Shown here piece after piece: positions 9,545 through 64,000 of a stretch of DNA of 64,000 nucleotides. This stretch comes from Escherichia coli (GTDB lineage Bacteria; Pseudomonadota; Gammaproteobacteria; Enterobacterales; Enterobacteriaceae). The notes under the pieces are model-generated. The model searched no databases, had not been told where the DNA came from, and saw only the letters and a program-made list of their open reading frames with translations. Position numbers and translations under genes: made by a program. Location: assembly GCF_030013205.1 (NCBI RefSeq), contig NZ_CP122648.1. One strand, 5' to 3'. Position 1 is the stretch's first letter. The number at the start of each line of letters is the position of its first letter.

Positions 9545-9580
9545 GCAAAAAAAATGGCGCACAATGTGCGCCATTTTTCA
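9545..9580. terminator. bidirectional intrinsic terminator shared by convergent ldtE (+) and lpp (-)
   Basis: Palindrome TGGCGCACA/ATGTGCGCCA flanked by an A8 run upstream and T5 downstream. Confidence 0.8.
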
Positions 9581-10141: not shown

Positions 10142-11554
10142 TTACAGGACGTGAACAGATGCTGTGTTAGTAGTGCCGCTCGGTACCAGTGCACCAGAAA
10201 CCATAACTACAACGTCACCTTTGTGTGCCAGACCGCTCTGCAGAGCCAGTTCTTTACCCAGACGGTAGAAATCATCAGTAGAAGTGATCTCTTTAACCAG
10301 TTGCGGTACAACGCCTTTGCTCAGTACCAACTGATGAGCCGTTTTTTCGTTGGTGGTCAGTGCCAGGATGGTGGCATCCGGGAAGTATTTACGTACTGCG
10401 CGAGCAGATTTACCGCCCTGGGTAGCAACCACGATCAGCGGGGCATCCAGTTTTTCAGCAGTTTCAACGGCACCACGGCATACCGCTTCGGTAATGCGCA
10501 GTTTACGGTTGTCATTGTTGAACTCGAGACGGCTGTTCATCACGCGGTCGGTACGTTCGCAGATGGTCGCCATGATAGAAACCGCTTCCAGCGGGTATTT
10601 ACCTTTTGCGGATTCACCAGACAGCATCACTGCGTCAGTACCGTCGAGGATGGCGTTTGCAACGTCACCGGCTTCTGCGCGAGTCGGGCGTGGGTTTTTG
10701 ATCATGGAATCCAGCATCTGGGTCGCAGTGATAACGACTTTACGTGCACGGATACATTTTTCGATCATCATCTTCTGGGCGAAGATAACTTCTTCTACCG
10801 GGATTTCTACACCCAGGTCGCCACGCGCAACCATGATGCCGTCAGAGGCTTCGAGGATTTCGTCGAAGTTGTTGAGGCCTTCCTGGTTTTCGATTTTGGA
10901 GATGATGTGGATGTTTTCGCCGCCGTGCGCTTTCAGGTGCTCACGGATTTCGATAACGTCAGAACGCTTACGAATAAAGGAAGCAGCGACAAAGTCTACG
11001 CCTTGTTCGCAACCAAAGATCAGGTCCTGTTTGTCTTTTTCAGCCAGTGCTGGCAGGGCAATGGAAACGCCAGGCAGGTTCACACCTTTGTTTTCACCCA
11101 GGTCGCCGTTGTTCAGCACTTTACAGATAACTTTGTTACCTTCAATGGCAGTAACTTCCATACCGATCAGACCATCGTCAACCAGTACGGTGTTGCCAAC
11201 AGACAGGTCAGTTGTGAAACCTTCATACGTTACCGCAACCATTTCGCTGTTGCCGATAACAGATTTATCAGTGGTGAAAGTAAAGGTCTGACCCGCTTTC
11301 AGAGAAACGTCGTTACCGCCTTCCAGTTTCATGGTGCGGATTTCCGGACCTTTGGTATCAAGCAGGATAGCGGCGGTTTTACCAGTTTTGCTCATCACGT
11401 TGCGCAGATTCTGAATGCGCTGACCGTGTTCTGCATAGTCACCATGAGAGAAGTTCAGACGCATAACGTTCATGCCAGCGTCCAGCATTTTAGCTAACAT
11501 CTCTTCAGATTCGGTTTTCGGTCCGATGGTGCAAACAATTTTGGTCTTTTTCAT
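10142..11554 (-). CDS. pykF: pyruvate kinase I
   Basis: ORF 10142..11770; internal start [19 protein letters not shown] gives the 470-aa PykF. Confidence 0.97.
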
Positions 11555-12110
11555 GACAGTCTTAGTCTTTAAGTTGAGAAGGATGGGAGAAACTTGCTTT
11601 CTGGGCGCACTGCCGGAAAGCGAATCCGGTATTACGAAAGTGGTGGTGCCTCGCTCTAAGGATAGGTGACATCGAAAAAGCGTGCAGAGGAATGTGTGCT
11701 TGTGTCTCAGCCCAACGTGAGTGCCTGTTTTTGAGTCGTTGAGTTCTACAGTCCAAAGTGCTGAAACCATTCAAGAGTCAATTGGCGCGCATTATACGCT
11801 GAAATTAATCCAAAAGGAAAACAAAAACAGCGTTTCAAAAAATATACAACTTGTTAGACAATAAATTGTTATCAAAGATTTAACGTTCCAGGGAAAAGGT
11901 TACGCAAAAACTTCGCTGTTTGCGCAACGTCTGGTGCCGGGGTTGTCACTGTGAAGATAAGTGAAAGTTCATCCGGTGTATAAATACATCATCGCTCAAT
12001 TGCTACAGTTAAAATAATTTATCGCGTTATTTGTCTGATTTTGTTTGATTTTTGTCTAATTGGTTAGATTGATATATGCTGATAGTTGGCATGATAAATA
12101 GGTATAAAGA

Positions 12111-12320
12111 ATGGGAAACCGGACAAAAGAGGATGAACTGTACCGAGAAATGTGCAGAGTTGTCGGTAAAGTTGTGCTGGAAATGCGCGATCTGGGGCAG
12201 GAACCAAAGCATATTGTTATCGCAGGCGTATTACGTACAGCATTAGCCAATAAACGCATTCAGCGCAGTGAGCTGGAAAAGCAGGCGATGGAAACCGTCA
12301 TTAACGCACTGGTAAAATGA
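12111..12320 (+). CDS. fumD: fumarase D (YdhZ), 69 aa
   Basis: 69-aa ORF recognised as YdhZ. Confidence 0.85.
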   Translation: MGNRTKEDELYREMCRVVGKVVLEMRDLGQEPKHIVIAGVLRTALANKRIQRSELEKQAMETVINALVK

Positions 12321-12560
12321 CCATTCAGGATGAGGCGATAAGCTTCATCCTGATATTCTTGCTTCAGTTGCGGTCCAGTTAATCATTCTAAATAACAACT
12401 GCTGAAATTATACGAATTTCGGTATGTATTTTAATTTATAACGATAATGTTATTTTTATTTTCTGCAATGAACGTCACAAATAATTGTCGTTTAAGTTAA
12501 ATTTATTTCAAATGATAATAAATATCAGTTCACTTATAATTTCTTGCTTTGTGATTTTAA

Positions 12561-12574
12561 TTGATAACGATCAA
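12561..12574. promoter_or_regulatory. FNR binding site upstream of ydhY
   Basis: Perfect FNR consensus TTGATAACGATCAA (TTGAT-N4-ATCAA) in the AT-rich region upstream of ydhY; the ydhYVWXUT operon is reported to be FNR-activated. Confidence 0.65.
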
Positions 12575-12776
12575 TGTTAAGAGCTCAGAATAATCACATT
12601 ATTTTTTTCTCCTAACCATAAAGGATTAGTTTATCAGCGTTAAGTTTTTTCTCATACACTATCGGGTTAGGGAAAATATCTGGTGTTGGGGACAGAGTCA
12701 GCAGCGTATTAGTTGAATGCTTAATATCAGTCTGCTGAATTGTCAGCACTGTGTTTGCGAAGAGGATGCGAAATAA

Positions 12777-15526
<2,750 letters not shown>

Positions 15527-15529
15527 GGA

Positions 15530-16177
15530 ATGGGTGAGATGAACCATCAGGATGAATTGCCGTTAGCGAAAGTCAGCGAAGTTGATGAGGCGAAGCGGCA
15601 ATGGTTGCAGGGGATGCGTCACCCCGTTGATACGGTAACCGAACCAGAACCTGCTGAAATCCTGGCAGAGTTCATTCGTCAGCATTCTGCGGCTGGGCAG
15701 CTGGTGGCGCGCGCCGTGTTTCTCTCGCCACCCTATTCGGTTGCAGAAGAGGAACTGTCAGTTTTGCTGGAAAGCATTAAGCAGAACGGAGACCACGCGG
15801 ATATCGCTTGTTTGACGGGAAGCCAGGATGATTACTATTACTCAACTCAGGCCATGAGTGAAAACTACGCGGCGATGTCTTTGCAAGTTGTGGAGCAGGA
15901 CATTTGTCGCGCCATTGCACACGCCGTTCGTTTTGAGTGCCAGACGTATCCTCGTCCTTACAAAGTCGCCATGCTGATGCAAGCGCCATATTACTTCCAG
16001 GAAGCGCAGATCGAATCCGCGATCGCCGCGATGGATATTGCACCTGAATATGCTGATATACGGCAGGTGGAGTCATCGACGGCGGTGTTGTACTTGTTTA
16101 GCGAGCGATTTATGACCTATGGCAAGGCGTATGGCTTATGCGAATGGTTCGAGGTAGAGCAGTTTCAGAACCCCTGA
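15530..16177 (+). CDS. ydhW: uncharacterised protein YdhW
   Basis: 215 aa; operon position. Confidence 0.85.
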   Translation: MGEMNHQDELPLAKVSEVDEAKRQWLQGMRHPVDTVTEPEPAEILAEFIRQHSAAGQLVARAVFLSPPYSVAEEELSVLLESIKQNGDHADIACLTGSQDDYYYSTQAMSENYAAMSLQVVEQDICRAIAHAVRFECQTYPRPYKVAMLMQAPYYFQEAQIESAIAAMDIAPEYADIRQVESSTAVLYLFSERFMTYGKAYGLCEWFEVEQFQNP

Positions 16178-16240
16178 AATTTCAGGGAGATGTCATGGAT
16201 AGGGTGGACAGTTGCAGCCACTGCATTAGGGGATAATCAG

Positions 16241-16909
16241 ATGTCCTTCACTCGACGCAAATTTGTTCTGGGGATGGGAACAGTAATCTTTTTTACTGGT
16301 TCTGCGTCTTCTCTGTTAGCGAACACGAGGCAAGAAAAGGAAGTTCGGTATGCCATGATTCATGACGAGTCACGGTGCAATGGCTGTAATATTTGCGCCC
16401 GCGCATGCCGTAAAACTAACCACGTCCCCGCTCAGGGAAGCCGTTTATCGATAGCACACATTCCAGTCACCGATAACGACAACGAAACGCAGTATCACTA
16501 TTTTCGCCAGTCATGCCAGCACTGTGAAGATGCTCCTTGCATCGATGTTTGCCCGACAGGGGCGTCGTGGCGTGATGAGCAGGGGATCGTGCGGGTAGAA
16601 AAATCGCAGTGCATCGGCTGCAGTTATTGCATTGGCGCTTGCCCGTACCAGGTTCGCTACCTTAACCCTGTCACTAAAGTGGCAGATAAATGTGATTTCT
16701 GCGCTGAGTCCCGACTGGCAAAAGGCTTTCCGCCCATTTGCGTCAGCGCCTGCCCGGAACACGCCTTGATCTTTGGTCGCGAAGATAGCCCAGAAATTCA
16801 GGCGTGGTTGCAGGAAAATAAATACTATCAATATCAGCTACCTGGTGCCGGGAAACCGCATCTGTATCGCCGATTCGGTCAACATTTGATTAAAAAGGAA
16901 AATGTATGA
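16241..16909 (+). CDS. ydhX: Tat-exported 4Fe-4S ferredoxin-type subunit YdhX
   Basis: Internal start MSFTRRKFVLGMG carries a twin-arginine motif; several CxxCxxCxxxCP motifs; 222 aa. Confidence 0.88.
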   Translation: MSFTRRKFVLGMGTVIFFTGSASSLLANTRQEKEVRYAMIHDESRCNGCNICARACRKTNHVPAQGSRLSIAHIPVTDNDNETQYHYFRQSCQHCEDAPCIDVCPTGASWRDEQGIVRVEKSQCIGCSYCIGACPYQVRYLNPVTKVADKCDFCAESRLAKGFPPICVSACPEHALIFGREDSPEIQAWLQENKYYQYQLPGAGKPHLYRRFGQHLIKKENV

Positions 16910-17691
16910 ACCCGTCGCAACATGCTGAACAGTTTCAGAGCCTGTTGGCGAACTATGTGCCACAGTTCACTCCCGAATTTTGGCCGGTGTGGTTGATCAT
17001 TGCCGGACTATTGCTGGTTGGGATGTGCTTGGTGCTGGGGCTGCATGCCTTGCTTCGTGCTCGTGGCGTGAAGAAATCAGCCACCGATCATGGTGAGAAG
17101 ATTTATCTTTACAGCAAAGCGGTCAGATTATGGCACTGGTCGAATGCGTTACTCTTTGTATTGTTGCTGGCAAGTGGGCTGATAAATCACTTTGCGCTGG
17201 TGGGCGCAACTGCGGTTAAAAGTCTGGTTGCGGTGCATGAAGTTTGCGGATTTTTGTTACTGGCATGCTGGCTTGGCTTTGTTCTGATCAATGCCGTTGG
17301 GGGTAATGGTCACCACTATCGCATTCGTCGTCAGGGTTGGCTGGAGCGAGCGGCAAAACAAACGCGATTTTATTTGTTTGGTATTATGCAGGGGGAAGAA
17401 CATCCTTTCCCGGCAACAACACAGTCTAAATTTAATCCCTTACAGCAGGTCGCCTATGTTGGTGTCATGTATGGATTGCTGCCGTTGTTACTATTGACGG
17501 GGCTGCTGTGTCTCTATCCGCAAGCCGTGGGAGATGTGTTTCCTGGCGTAAGATACTGGTTATTGCAGGCGCATTTTGCTCTGGCATTTATAAGCCTCTT
17601 TTTTATCTTCGGTCATCTTTATCTTTGCACCACGGGGCGTACGCCACACGAAACCTTTAAAAGCATGGTCGATGGCTATCACCGGCACTAA
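16906..17691 (+). CDS. ydhU: PhsC/NrfD-like integral-membrane cytochrome b-type subunit YdhU
   Basis: 261 aa, hydrophobic; 4-nt overlap with ydhX. Confidence 0.88.
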   Translation: MNPSQHAEQFQSLLANYVPQFTPEFWPVWLIIAGLLLVGMCLVLGLHALLRARGVKKSATDHGEKIYLYSKAVRLWHWSNALLFVLLLASGLINHFALVGATAVKSLVAVHEVCGFLLLACWLGFVLINAVGGNGHHYRIRRQGWLERAAKQTRFYLFGIMQGEEHPFPATTQSKFNPLQQVAYVGVMYGLLPLLLLTGLLCLYPQAVGDVFPGVRYWLLQAHFALAFISLFFIFGHLYLCTTGRTPHETFKSMVDGYHRH

Positions 17692-20554: not shown

Positions 20555-20662
20555 AGCGATTCTCCTTCTGATAACGCATACGAAGACAGTGTAAATCTTT
20601 TAACGTATTGGATACAGAGAAGAAACAGAGGGAAAAAAGGAGAAGACCAGATTAAGAAAATC

Positions 20663-33549: not shown

Positions 33550-36500
33550 CTATCCCCAATCCAGTCCTTGTGGCGAACTTGAAAATCCCGCCTCACGCAG
33601 CAGCGTAAACATCGGCGTTTGCCGGACCGGTAGGTCATTCACTTCTGTTAGCGTAAAGCGCAGCCGTGGTTCGCGACGCAGTGCGGTAGTCAGCGCGTGG
33701 AAAATCTCTGGGGCGAGTAATTCCTCTTTTTCCTGCCAGACCAGCATTTTTTTGCCACCTTGCGCCAGATAGAGTAACAATTTGCCGCCAGAAACGACCA
33801 CCAGCGCACCCGCCCGACGCGTTGGTATCAGCGTTGCCGGATGTGCAGGCCAGGGCAGAAGATTTCCCCATGCATTAGCCGGATCGTTGGCGGAGAGCGC
33901 CACTGGTGTATAGTGGCGCGTTTGCGCGGTTTGTGTCGCCAGATCGCGCAATCGGTCAATAGTCAGACGTTCAGCGAATTGCGCGCCACCCAGACCTTCT
34001 ACAAAACGACCTCGCATAATTCGCCCGGAGTCTTCCATACTTCGACAAAGCGTTTGCATCGATGGAAACCCGCCAGGGATATTTTCGGCTATCACCGCCT
34101 GACGACTGATGATGCCGTAGCGGTCGAGCATATTTTCCGCCAGCGCCAGCATCCTTTCGGTATCGTTTAGTGGCTCCACCTGCAATAACGACCAGCGTCC
34201 AGCCAGATTTGGTGTGTTGTAAGACACCCGCGGCGAGACGGGTTGTGCATAGACAGGACGCCCACGACGAGCCCGGTGACTGCGGCGAGTTGAGGTGCGT
34301 GCGTTGGAACTGCTGCGGGTGAGGGCGCGTAACGGTGCCCAAATATCGCTGGTGATGACGACTTGCCAGACCAGCGCCCATAACGCCTCTTGCAGTGCCG
34401 AGGGATCAACCGATTCGCCGATTTTATCGCGTATCCGTTGGCTGATTTGTTGTGCAAACCAGGCTCCTCCGTCAGCCAGAACCGTGACTATCGCTTGCTG
34501 CAGTGCCGAACGATTCGCCTGATTCGCTTCGGCGGGAGTGAACGATTCTGCAGCATATTCCTGTAGATGCAGTGCCACCAGGCCGTCATCTTCACCCAGT
34601 TTTTTTGCCCCGACCAGATAACCGCACCGGTTGCCAGTAATTCATCGAGCATTTCTGGCGAATAGTCGCGTACGCGGGCAGGCAGGATCTGGCTTTCCCA
34701 GAGTGAGGCGGGTAAACCGACTCCGGCAAGCTGTTCGATCACCCGCATGACGCCATCCACGCCCTCATAAACGCCTGGCGATGTTGAGGCAAAGAGTGCC
34801 GGGCTACCATCGGTGGCGGGTAATACGCCCTGACGTTCCAGCAGCAATCGCGCATAGGTCGTGGCCGCAACGGGACGTGTCGCTTCTCTGGCGGCTTGCA
34901 GCGAGCGCAAACGCAGACGACGAAATACTTCATCGCTCACCCAGATGTCTTGTTGCAGATTCATCACCAGCCCCTGTTCGCGCAGTTGCTGAAGTTGCTC
35001 TTCGACAATGGCAATACCGAGACTAAACTCATGAGCCAGTTGTTCAGACGTGACCAGAGCATGAGCCCGGAGATAGCGCAGAAAGAGGTCGCGAAGCGGG
35101 TAACTGACTCGGTGCAAATAAATCTCTGGCAGTGACTCTGGTAGTCGTACGCCGAGAGCATCGCGCAGCCTGGCGGCATCATCCATACAGGCAAGACGCT
35201 CCTGCCCGCTAATCATGGTCGGGAAGATTCGTTTTACTGCAAGAAGATTTTCCAGATACGACGCAATCTCTTCACTGCTGCCTGTATGTCGTTGCGCCAG
35301 GTCTTCAACGGTCATTGGCCCCAGTTCGCGCAGCAGGTCGAACAATCCTTCTTCACCTTTCGCTCTTCTGCCAGGAGCCAGTCGTTGCAACTCTTCTTCC
35401 ACCTGGCGAATGACCTGTGGGTCGAGTAATTCCCCCGGATCGACCTGTCCGAGTAGATTGCGCAGTAACTCGCTGTCCAGCGACAGTACGGATGCCCGGC
35501 GCTCTGCCAGCGGGGCGTCGCTCTGGTACATAAATTCCGCGACATAGCCGAACAATAAACTGGCGGCGAAAGGCGAGGGCGTAGTGGTCGTTACATCGGA
35601 TATTTGAATTTCGCCACCGTTCAGGCGACGCATCAAACGTTCCAGCGCGGGAAGATCATAAACATCTTGCAGACATTCGCGTAGGGTTTCGAGAATGACC
35701 GGAAAATCCGGATATCCCTGAGCGATTTCCAGCAACTGACTGGCGCGCAGCCGTTGTTGCCAGAGCGGGGTGCGATGGCCCGGCGTGCGGCCCGGCATTA
35801 ATAATGCCCGCGCGGCGCATTCGCGAAAACGGGCGGCGAAAAGTGCCGAGCTGCCTACCGCCTCGCGGACAATTTGCAGCAACTTTTCTGGTTCAAACAA
35901 AAAAATCGCGGCATCAGGCAATTTACCATCGGTGTCAGGAATGCGCGCAACAATGCCGTCATCACTGGCTACCACAGACGCGTCAGCGCCCCATAGTGCA
36001 TGTATTCGCCCGGCAATCGCCAGCGCCCAGGGTTCATGCACCCGTCTTCCATAGGGAGAGTGCAAAATAATACGCCAGTCACCAATTTCATCACGGCACC
36101 GTTCGAGGACCAGATGACGACTACCTGGAACGATGCCCGTCGCGTTGCGCTGCTCGTCAATCAACCCCTGAATATTGGCGATCGTATTTTCTTCTGCCAA
36201 CCACGGGGGAATAGTCCCGGAAAAGAACGCGCCATCCGCCAGTAAATGGAGAAAATCGCCGATCATCTCGCCTAATTCTGCCGGACGTCCGTTACCTTCA
36301 CCACGCCAGAAGGGAAGGCGGGCAGAACGACCTGGAGCAGGAGTCACAATCACCTGATCGCGGGTGATTTGCTGGATCCGCCATGAGGTAGCGCCGAGAG
36401 TGATAATGTCGTTCACCCGCGACTCATATACCATCTCCTCATCCAGTTCACCCACCCGCCGCGAACCGGCCTGTTCTTCACCTTCGGGTAATAACACGCT

Positions 36501-38165
36501 ATACATGCCACGATCCGGAATGGTGCCACCGCTGGTAACCGCCAACAGCTGAGCGCCAGGTCGGGCGGTCAATATCCCGGTCTCCCTGTTCCAGACCAGT
36601 TTTGGTCGAAAAGCAGAAAAATCGCCAGAGGGATAGCGCCCGGAAAGCATATCCAGCGTGGCGTCAAAAACACGTCTTGGCAGATCTTTCCACGGTGCGG
36701 CACGGCGTACGCGGGAGTACCATTCGTCTGCCTGTAATGCATCCATCGCCGCGGCGGCAACGGTTTGCTGCGCAAGGACGTCGAGTGGATTATGCGGTGG
36801 TGTCAGGTTTTCCAGCCTGCCTGCGAACATACACTCAACAATGACTGCGGAATCGACTAAATCACGCCTGGTTCGGGGGAAAAAAAGCCCTTTGGAGATA
36901 CCACCTACCTGGTGTCCGGCACGTCCAATGCGTTGTAACCCACTGGCAACAGAAAGCGGCGTTGCCACCTGAATCACCAGATCCACCGCGCCCATATCAA
37001 TCCCCAGTTCGAGACTGGAGGTTGCGACCACACAGCGTAATTCACCCGATTTCAGCGCCTGTTCGGTGATTGCTCGTTGTTCTTTAGAGACGGAGCCGTG
37101 GTGTGAGCGGGCAATAAAAATGTCGCTACTTTGTATACGGTTAGAGGTTGCGCCGGAGGTCGACTCGAAATGGACCGCATCAACGGCGATAGACGGGGAA
37201 CGCTGTAAGCGTGCGGCGTAAAGTTCATTCAATCGTGCCGTCAGTTTTTCCGCCAGCCCGCGTGAATTAGTAAAGACAATGGTCGAGCGATGGCGCAAAA
37301 CTTCATCAAGGATACCCGTTTCAATATATGGCCAGATGGAGCCTTCTCGGCCGGCATGGCTGTCTTCGCCGGTGCCGCTGGCGACCGATGAGACATCATC
37401 CATATTGGCGACCGGTACGACAATCCGTATCTGCGGATGGCGCATTGCGGGCGGGTTTACTACCGTAACCGGGCGATCGCCACCAAGAAATGCTGCAACA
37501 TCGCTGGCTGAGCGTACAGTGGCAGAAAGGCCAATTCGCTGTGCTGAGGTGTGGAGCAGCGCATCGAGCCGCTCCAGACTTAACGCCAGATGCGCACCAC
37601 GTTTACTGCCCGCTACCGCGTGGACTTCATCAATAATTACCGTTTCGACGCCGCGTAGCGTTTCGCGCGCGCGGGAGGTCAGCATCAGATAGAGTGATTC
37701 GGGTGTGGTGATCAGAATATCCGGCGGATTACGGGTGAGTTTGCTGCGTTCCTGTGCAGGCGTATCGCCAGTACGGATCCCCACGCGAAGATTGACTTCC
37801 GTTTCGCCGCGCCGCCGCCGTTCATCGGCAATACCCTGTAACGGGATCTGCAAGTTGCGCTGAACGTCGGTGCCCAGAGCTTTGATCGGTGAAATATAGA
37901 GGATGCGTGAGGTTTTACGTTTATGCGCCTCGCGGGTATCTTCGCCGCCTTCGCGGAAGAGCTGATCGAGGGCGTAGAGAAATGCTGCCAGCGTTTTCCC
38001 GGAGCCAGTCGGTGCAATCACCAGCGCATGTTCGCCTCGCGCCGCCACATGCCAGGTTTGCGACTGGACAGCGGTCGGCTGTTTAAAGGCGCGAAGAAAC
38101 CAGTCGCGGGTTGCCGGTGAAAACACGTCCGGCAGGGGCGATGAAAGGTTTGGATTATCTGCCAT
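33550..38165 (-). pseudogene. lhr: ATP-dependent helicase Lhr (DEAD/DEAH superfamily 2), interrupted by a -1 frameshift in a homopolymer near 34600-34606
   Basis: Two consecutive same-strand ORFs in different frames (34488..38165, 1225 aa with Lhr N-terminus; 33550..34578, 342 aa); total span is 4616 nt, one short of a multiple of 3; inserting one A in the run restores a continuous reading frame. Confidence 0.85.
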
Positions 38166-39007: not shown

Positions 39008-39415
39008 TTAGTTGCCCAGACCGCGACCGGCGTCTTTCTCTTCGATTAACTCAATTTTGTAACCGTCCGGATCTTCCACAAACGCGATAACCGTAGTACC
39101 GCCTTTTACCGGACCCGCTTCACGGGTGACGTTACCCCCGTTTTGACGGATTTTTTCGCACGCTTCAGCGGCGTTATCAACGCTAAGCGCGATGTGACCA
39201 TAAGCCGTGCCGAGTTCGTATTTATCCACGCCCCAGTTGTAGGTCAGTTCAATCACCGCTTCTTCGGTTTCCGGGCCGTAGCCAACAAACGCCAGTGAGT
39301 ATTTGTATTCCGGGTTTTCGCTGGTACGCAGCAGTTTCATGCCCAGTACTTTGGTATAAAAATCGATGGAGCGTTGCAGATCGCCAACGCGCAGCATGGT
39401 ATGAAGAAGACGCAT
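39008..39415 (-). CDS. gloA: glyoxalase I (lactoylglutathione lyase)
   Basis: 135 aa [26 protein letters not shown]... Confidence 0.97.
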
Positions 39416-63621: not shown

Positions 63622-64000
63622 ACATGAGCGACAACATCCGTGTTGGGTTGATTGGGTATGGTTATGCGAGCAAAACCTTCCATGCGCCCCTGATTGCGGG
63701 CACGCCCGGGCTGGAACTGGCGGTTATCTCCAGCAGCGATGAAACAAAAGTAAAAGCCGACTGGCCAACGGTTACGGTTGTCTCTGAGCCGAAGCATCTG
63801 TTTAACGATCCCAACATAGACCTGATTGTCATCCCTACACCCAACGATACCCATTTCCCGTTAGCCAAAGCGGCGCTTGAGGCGGGTAAACATGTGGTCG
63901 TTGATAAACCCTTTACCGTGACACTGTCACAAGCGCGAGAGCTGGAAGCGCTGGCAAAAAGCCTGGGGCGTGTGCTGTCTGTATTCCATAACCGTCGCTG
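63622..64000 (+). CDS. ydgJ: Gfo/Idh/MocA-family oxidoreductase YdgJ, N-terminal part (3' end outside the window)
   Basis: ATG at about 63622 opens MSDNIRVGLIGYGYASKTFHAPLIAGTPGLELAVISSSDE... (Rossmann fold), open to the window end. Confidence 0.85.

Follow-up and report, generated by a model that had tools for sequence, protein, structure and literature searches.

A frameshifted lhr gene in an Escherichia coli assembly: homopolymer undercall or recent slippage mutation

In the 64,000-nucleotide stretch of Escherichia coli DNA analyzed here (contig NZ_CP122648.1 of assembly GCF_030013205.1, hereafter the window), the gene lhr, which encodes the DNA-repair enzyme Lhr (large helicase-related ATP-dependent helicase), is divided between two reading frames at a run of seven A (A7) on its coding strand. 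We consider that an artefact of the assembly is somewhat more likely here than a real, very recent mutation. The change is a one-base difference in a long homopolymer, it is private to a single assembly, and the gene is otherwise equal to that of intact relatives. The interpretation that we modestly favour is thus that a homopolymer undercall was left in the assembly, the organism itself having a tract of eight A (A8) and an intact Lhr of 1538 amino acids. Base-calling or polishing, of the kind typical of a long-read-only consensus, would have dropped one A of the eight. The A7 state of lhr, a known gene that is dispensable, represents a homopolymer frameshift of an ordinary sort and is already known in kind.

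The split gene and its restored reading frame

The preliminary description of this DNA had reported two consecutive open reading frames (ORFs) for Lhr, of 1225 and 342 amino acids and in different frames, within a start-to-stop span of 4616 nt. The list of ORFs agrees with it on the first point and the span was confirmed at 33550..38165 on the minus strand; this length is 2 mod 3, one base under a multiple of three. Both ORFs translate to Lhr sequence. The upstream one leaves the native frame at the A7 run and ends with a 37-residue out-of-frame tail, which reads NWVKMTAWWHCIYRNMLQNRSLPPKRIRRIVRHCSKR. When lhr was sought as a single uninterrupted frame, it was not found in the window, the frame being interrupted past codon 1188, where the A7 run lies.

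It had also been proposed that one more A at this run would restore the frame, and this proved right. Upon insertion of one A, an uninterrupted ORF of 4617 nt and 1538 amino acids was obtained, reading ...SGQKKLGEDDGLVALHLQEY... across the run. This restored gene was the allele of strain K_EC180: it matched the intact lhr of that strain (WP_063086027.1) at all 4617 nt, with 0 differences. The restored protein scored 3389.7 bits against the NCBIfam equivalog NF007284 (cut-off 1496) and was aligned over residues 1-1538 of 1538. Since the match runs from end to end, the two ORFs represent the split of a known gene and not a chance pair. The position of the gene is also the expected one. It lies between rnt and grxD, the order rnt-lhr-grxD is conserved (the annotated relatives are colinear with the window), and the surrounding order, sodB-mepH-grxD-lhr-rnt-gloA-nemA, is that of E. 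coli.

Lhr of E. coli K-12 (1538 amino acids; NF007284/PRK09751; composed of Lhr-Core and the C-terminal domain, Lhr-CTD) is the product of the same gene, found in the same position between rnt and grxD, and the DNA is 97.4% identical. Whereas the K-12 gene has A8 and one frame, the window has A7, its frame breaks after residue 1188 and the last 350 residues are left unjoined. The coordinates of these features are collected in Table 1.

Table 1. Features of the lhr locus, in positions of the window
Feature	Position	Strand	Basis
lhr (large helicase-related ATP-dependent helicase), frameshifted	33550..38165	-	ORF list, synteny with annotated relatives, NF007284 match
Upstream ORF, 1225 aa, ATG start: 1188 native Lhr residues, followed by an out-of-frame stretch of 37 residues with its stop	34488..38165	-	ORF list, translation
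Downstream ORF, 342 aa, internal GTG start at 34578	33550..34578	-	ORF list
Frameshift site: A7 on the coding strand, T7 on the plus strand	34600..34606	-	read from sequence
Out-of-frame tail, 37 codons (NWVKMT...HCSKR) and a TAA/TAG-type stop, due to the missing A	34488..34601	-	translation
Original frame, Lhr residues 1190-1538 and stop: end of WH3, WH4, C-terminal module	33550..34599	-	translation, Pfam, 7LHL alignment
A_AAA_AAC heptamer, in the zero frame as CA[A AAA AAC]	34599..34605	-	read from sequence

The tract in close relatives and across E. coli genomes

The closest relatives of the window form a porcine lineage (K_EC180, EC556/571/581, O139:H1 strains, the Belgian ETEC4067-4079, 6333/6334, 1701 and 1748), and they are ~100% identical to it over 25 kb. 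An exact match to the window was found in no complete RefSeq genome. In all four relatives inspected directly (K_EC180, EC556, ETEC1701 and ETEC1748), the lhr site carried A8. The other near-identical relatives span 25001 bases for a 25000-base query, which fits A8 as well. When the window was compared with EC556 over 49.8 kb and a further 4.9 kb, the lhr tract was the sole indel, accompanied by 9 and 2 single-nucleotide polymorphisms (SNPs), respectively. The comparison with K_EC180 (49 kb) gave 1 SNP, the lhr tract and 4 single-base homopolymer deletions in K_EC180, whereas that with ETEC1701 (50 kb) gave the lhr tract and 2 homopolymer deletions in ETEC1701, at window-equivalent positions 20633 and 36880. 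As the latter falls in another run of lhr, the lhr gene of ETEC1701 is also flagged as frameshifted. The K_EC180 deletions are located at window-equivalent 12049, 12602, 19860 and 51630, and two of them underlie the annotated ydhS and pdxY frameshifts of that strain. The single-base deletions of K_EC180 and ETEC1701, being absent from the window and from the other relatives, most likely reflect faulty assembly of those two genomes.

Across positions 54-62700 (~62.6 kb), lhr A7 was the sole indel private to the window. Homopolymer runs of at least 5 bases number 299 in the window, 81 of them reaching at least 6 and 27 at least 7 bases, and the lhr tract is among the three longest. The other runs of at least 8 bases, A8 at 9547-9554 and A9 at 52926-52934, both agree with the relatives. 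A single substitution in the compared region is private to the window: a synonymous C at 39206, in gloA, where all three close relatives have A. Being synonymous, it offers no protein tag.

In order to survey the tract more widely, an 87-nt query centred on the run was compared with complete E. coli genomes, and the site was found in 4351 of them. A8 was present in ~4324 (~99.4%), A7 in 18 and A9 in 9. The A8 that the preliminary description had expected of reference lhr genes is therefore the rule, and it is also the state of the 4617-nt gene of K-12. Miscalls or mutations affect the tract in 27 of the 4351 complete assemblies, which makes it a recurrent problem site. The ratio of A7 to A9, roughly 2:1, was considered as a test of artefact against mutation; it does not discriminate between them. 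In the A7 genomes that were inspected, lhr is annotated as 'frameshifted' by the NCBI Prokaryotic Genome Annotation Pipeline (PGAP).

Thirteen A7 sequences, from 12 of the 18 A7 assemblies and the window, were aligned over 2987 nt. The sequences differed from one another at 0-67 positions and represented at least 7 distinct lhr alleles. The A7 allele of 730V1, S1-CAM-01-C and STEC388 also occurs with A8 in at least 19 genomes, and inheritance of A7 from a common ancestor of these three strains was rejected, as the same allele is found in those A8 genomes and there is no evidence of a clade. Given the diversity of the alleles and the sharing of one of them with A8 genomes, the A7 cases are, as judged from these alignments, independent sporadic singletons, and A7 defines no clade. 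The frameshifted lhr genes of ETEC1738 (QDY55_RS12180), 730V1 (ID627_RS11610) and NCTC9040 (EL149_RS13690) share with the window the A7 run, its 87-nt context, the 4616-nt span and the consequence for the reading frame. However, the frameshifted genes of other genomes represent other alleles and independent events, and several are accompanied by further homopolymer frameshifts nearby, which the window lacks. ETEC1738 has a 401-nt piece 100% identical to the window, yet 108 SNPs over 12.4 kb separate the flanking sequences, which makes the match a shared local allele and not a sign of shared origin.

Four of the 18 A7 genomes (ETEC1734, 1738, 1749 and 1706) originate from one project of 94 porcine isolates, in which only Oxford Nanopore Technologies R9.4.1 reads were used, with Trycycler assembly, medaka polishing and no short reads, and for which an accuracy of ~Q50 is reported (PMC10151945). 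The A7 state was found in 4 of the at most 94 genomes of this nanopore-only project and in 14 of ~4257 others (Fisher odds ratio 13.5, p = 5e-4). The site thus appears to be miscalled preferentially in long-read-only assemblies, the platform being known for those four genomes only.

The neighbourhoods of the A7 tracts were also inspected for other homopolymer frameshifts. NCTC9040 has three within 40 kb (cfa, ydhS and phsC), ETEC1738 has two (ydhV and rsxD), and the lhr gene of ETEC1706 measures 4615 nt. In 730V1, EC96 and STEC388, no other gene within 40 kb is flagged as frameshifted. The proposal that A7 assemblies always have error-rich neighbourhoods was therefore not retained, NCTC9040 and ETEC1738 agreeing with it and the last three strains not. 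In STEC388, lhr combines A7 with a CAG-to-TAG in-frame stop (alignment column ~692; PGAP 'frameshifted; internal stop'), and ydhK is truncated; this lhr gene may be genuinely decaying.

The products were looked up in protein records. A public gene-position collection lists the intact 1538-residue product of the window allele in 258 blocks, most of which belong to contigs of 20-200 kb. Upon exact look-up of the split products (1225 and 342 amino acids) in the same collection, neither was on record. A comparison of the out-of-frame tail with 5.8 billion proteins gave few matches, all of them short fragments of assemblies with multiple frameshifts, in a set where truncated proteins are hidden within full-length clusters.

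Artefact, mutation or recoding

The preliminary description had left a slippage mutation and a sequencing error as the two alternatives. The same two remain, and our analysis gives the error the greater weight. An artefact is favoured because the change is private, the gene is without decay and the tract is among the three longest runs of the window. It is further favoured by the ~13-fold enrichment of A7 in the nanopore-only project, by the absence of the split products from the records, and by the distribution of A7 as scattered singletons on at least 7 alleles, never as a clade. In addition, like single-base deletions affect other runs in close relatives from such projects, and further homopolymer frameshifts accompany A7 in some assemblies. 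An error rate of one in ~62.6 kb fits an accuracy of ~Q50, though a real slippage event would fit as well. A rough Bayesian weighing was made with a per-site A7 rate of ~4% for R9.4.1-only assemblies and of at most 0.1% for polished ones, the true frequency of A7 being set to at most 0.2-0.4%. The artefact would come out ahead as long as a long-read-only source is not given a very small prior.

Several observations weigh against an artefact. The absence of any other private indel in 54-62700, together with the agreement of the A8 and A9 runs with the relatives, indicates that the assembly is not generally error-prone, and the A7 tracts of 730V1, EC96 and STEC388 likewise stand without another flagged gene nearby. 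If the source assembly were based on Illumina reads or polished in a hybrid manner, a miscalled 8-mer would be improbable. A8 tracts are genuine slippage hotspots, and a real mutation is plausible in a gene whose loss is tolerated.

Natural losses of lhr are indeed observed. Of 5425 complete E. coli genomes, ~1043 (~19%), including ATCC 25922 and NU14, have no more than 5% of lhr left, as a 229-bp remnant between rnt and grxD. In ATCC 25922, this remnant occupies 2501-2729 of the stretch inspected and is annotated by PGAP as two partial pseudogenes. In the sister strain ETEC1748, the insertion sequence IS1 is located inside the 3' end of lhr (11551-16941 of the stretch inspected), at the equivalent of window ~33700. 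Here the gene is unambiguously disrupted by a natural event, which cannot be a base-calling error. Thus lhr is dispensable in wild E. coli, the same porcine lineage included, and a real inactivation would be tolerated. The B2-type deletion remnant and the ETEC1748 insertion resemble the window in that loss of Lhr function is tolerated; however, they are structural lesions (a 4.4-kb deletion and IS1), whereas the change in the window concerns a single base and is indistinguishable from a base-calling error.

A genuine mutation accordingly retains a considerable, if less than even, probability. A recent replication-slippage deletion from A8 to A7 would have made lhr a pseudogene in one strain, with a product of 1225 amino acids. 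Under such a scenario, the translocase core would be kept, the glycosylase activity (Asp-1536) and probably the oligomerisation mediated by the CTD would be lost, and a mild sensitivity to hydrogen peroxide (H2O2) and azidothymidine (AZT) would be expected. Besides the slippage-prone nature of the tract and the dispensability of the gene, this explanation draws support from the accurate appearance of the ~62.6 kb. The private SNP at 39206 points to a distinct isolate with changes of its own, and the lineage already has an apparently real, inherited frameshift in pdxY (see below). Both A7 (18) and A9 (9) exist, so that deletions are not the only changes observed, and STEC388 adds an in-frame stop to its A7. 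On the other hand, A7 was found in no close relative and formed no clade among the 4351 genomes, and the restored gene shows no secondary decay. The enrichment in the nanopore-only project and the contrast between absent split products and a common intact allele in the gene-position collection speak against a mutation as well.

It was also envisaged that the A tract is a site of recoding, by -1 ribosomal frameshifting on A_AAA_AAC or transcriptional slippage on A7/T7, or a phase-variation site alternating between A7, A8 and A9. The heptamer is indeed in the zero frame, and a -1 shift gives ...GQKNLGEDDG..., back in the lhr frame; A7, A8 and A9 all occur among assemblies. This resembles dnaX-type -1 frameshifting or slippage at A runs, in that the break coincides with an in-frame X_XXY_YYZ motif on which a -1 shift would restore the frame. 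Unlike the dnaX-type sites, however, the lhr site lacks a stimulatory structure and a conserved arrangement, and its heptamer ends in AAC and not in the efficient AAG. When a downstream stimulatory RNA structure was sought in the 113 nt from the run onward, none was detected, the fold of -31.4 kcal/mol being no better than that of shuffled sequences (mean -31.6 kcal/mol, z = 0.05). The ancestral and dominant state is a plain in-frame A8 ORF (~99.4%), and the two-frame arrangement is not conserved. Phase variation fits poorly with a tract that varies in only 27 of 4351 assemblies, as scattered singletons on at least 7 alleles and without a clade. Efficient slippage of E. coli RNA polymerase requires runs longer than 7 A. 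Programmed frameshifting at lhr was therefore rejected, for want of a stimulatory structure and of conservation, and we regard recoding or phase variation as very improbable. Basal slippage could at most render a real A7 allele slightly leaky. An equally improbable variant would make the A8 tract a mutational switch, in which recurrent slippage to A7 or A9 detaches the glycosylase and oligomerisation module from an active core while low-level -1 frameshifting supplies some full-length protein. If this were true, lineages could modulate uracil repair or mutation rate.

Predicted product and other observations in the window

To appreciate what a real A7 allele would encode, the domains of the restored Lhr were located with Pfam. 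WH2_Lhr was found at residues 912-1016, WH3_Lhr at 1130-1206 and WH4_Lhr at 1334-1416. The frame break falls inside WH3_Lhr, so that the protein loses WH4 together with the C-terminal module, to which Asp-1536 (codon at 33559-33561) belongs. The lost segment of 349 residues aligns to residues 1160-1442 of chain 7LHL_A, the cryo-electron microscopy structure of Mycobacterium smegmatis Lhr.

The Lhr core, a monomeric ATPase and 3'-5' translocase, has been delimited to 877 amino acids (PMC8053096) or to residues 1-897 (PMC10953399). The CTD nucleates oligomerisation and is built of five winged-helix modules and a beta-barrel, including an AlkZ-like subdomain (PMC8053096). Asp-1536 is catalytic and needed for the uracil-DNA glycosylase activity of Lhr, which can be separated from the helicase activity; the delta-lhr mutant shows sensitivity to H2O2 and a mild sensitivity to AZT (PMC10953399).

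A real frameshift would leave a product with the core (residues 1-897) and ~290 residues of the CTD but without the last ~350 residues. The preliminary description had announced a helicase core without its C-terminal domain; the core is kept and the C-terminal part lost as stated, whereas the remaining ~290 residues amount to ~45% of the CTD. On sequence grounds, such a product would be helicase-competent and glycosylase-dead, and it would probably be unable to oligomerise normally. The gene would then constitute a separation-of-function allele of natural origin, which retains the helicase core but not the uracil-DNA glycosylase module, and would further support the dispensability of Lhr in E. 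coli. If the missing A is an artefact, the pseudogene status that the record gives to lhr is wrong, and counts of pseudogenes and gene losses in porcine pathogenic E. coli would be slightly misled. Beyond annotation hygiene, the importance of the case is little.

A second frameshift was noted in pdxY (pyridoxal kinase), at 51364-52226 of the window. There, a T5 run is reduced to T4 at 51690-51693, and the gene is divided into ORFs at 51364-51705 and 51705-52226. The frameshift flag on pdxY is common to EC556, K_EC180 and ETEC1701, members of the lineage from Japan, Korea and Belgium. The T4 was seen directly in EC556, and K_EC180 and ETEC1701 have no indel relative to the window at that run. 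Since this frameshift is shared across the lineage, unlike the lhr change, pdxY looks like a real inherited pseudogene.

Two further observations concern the end of the window. The near-perfect alignment to EC556 ends at ~62700, the segment ~62700-64000 containing ydgJ/add, and EC556 ydgJ has a different protein accession; a recombination boundary or an allele switch may lie there. In addition, rsxC contains a tandem array at 58160-58582, made of 4.4 copies of a 96-nt unit with 88% matches, which encodes in-frame repeats of 32 amino acids.

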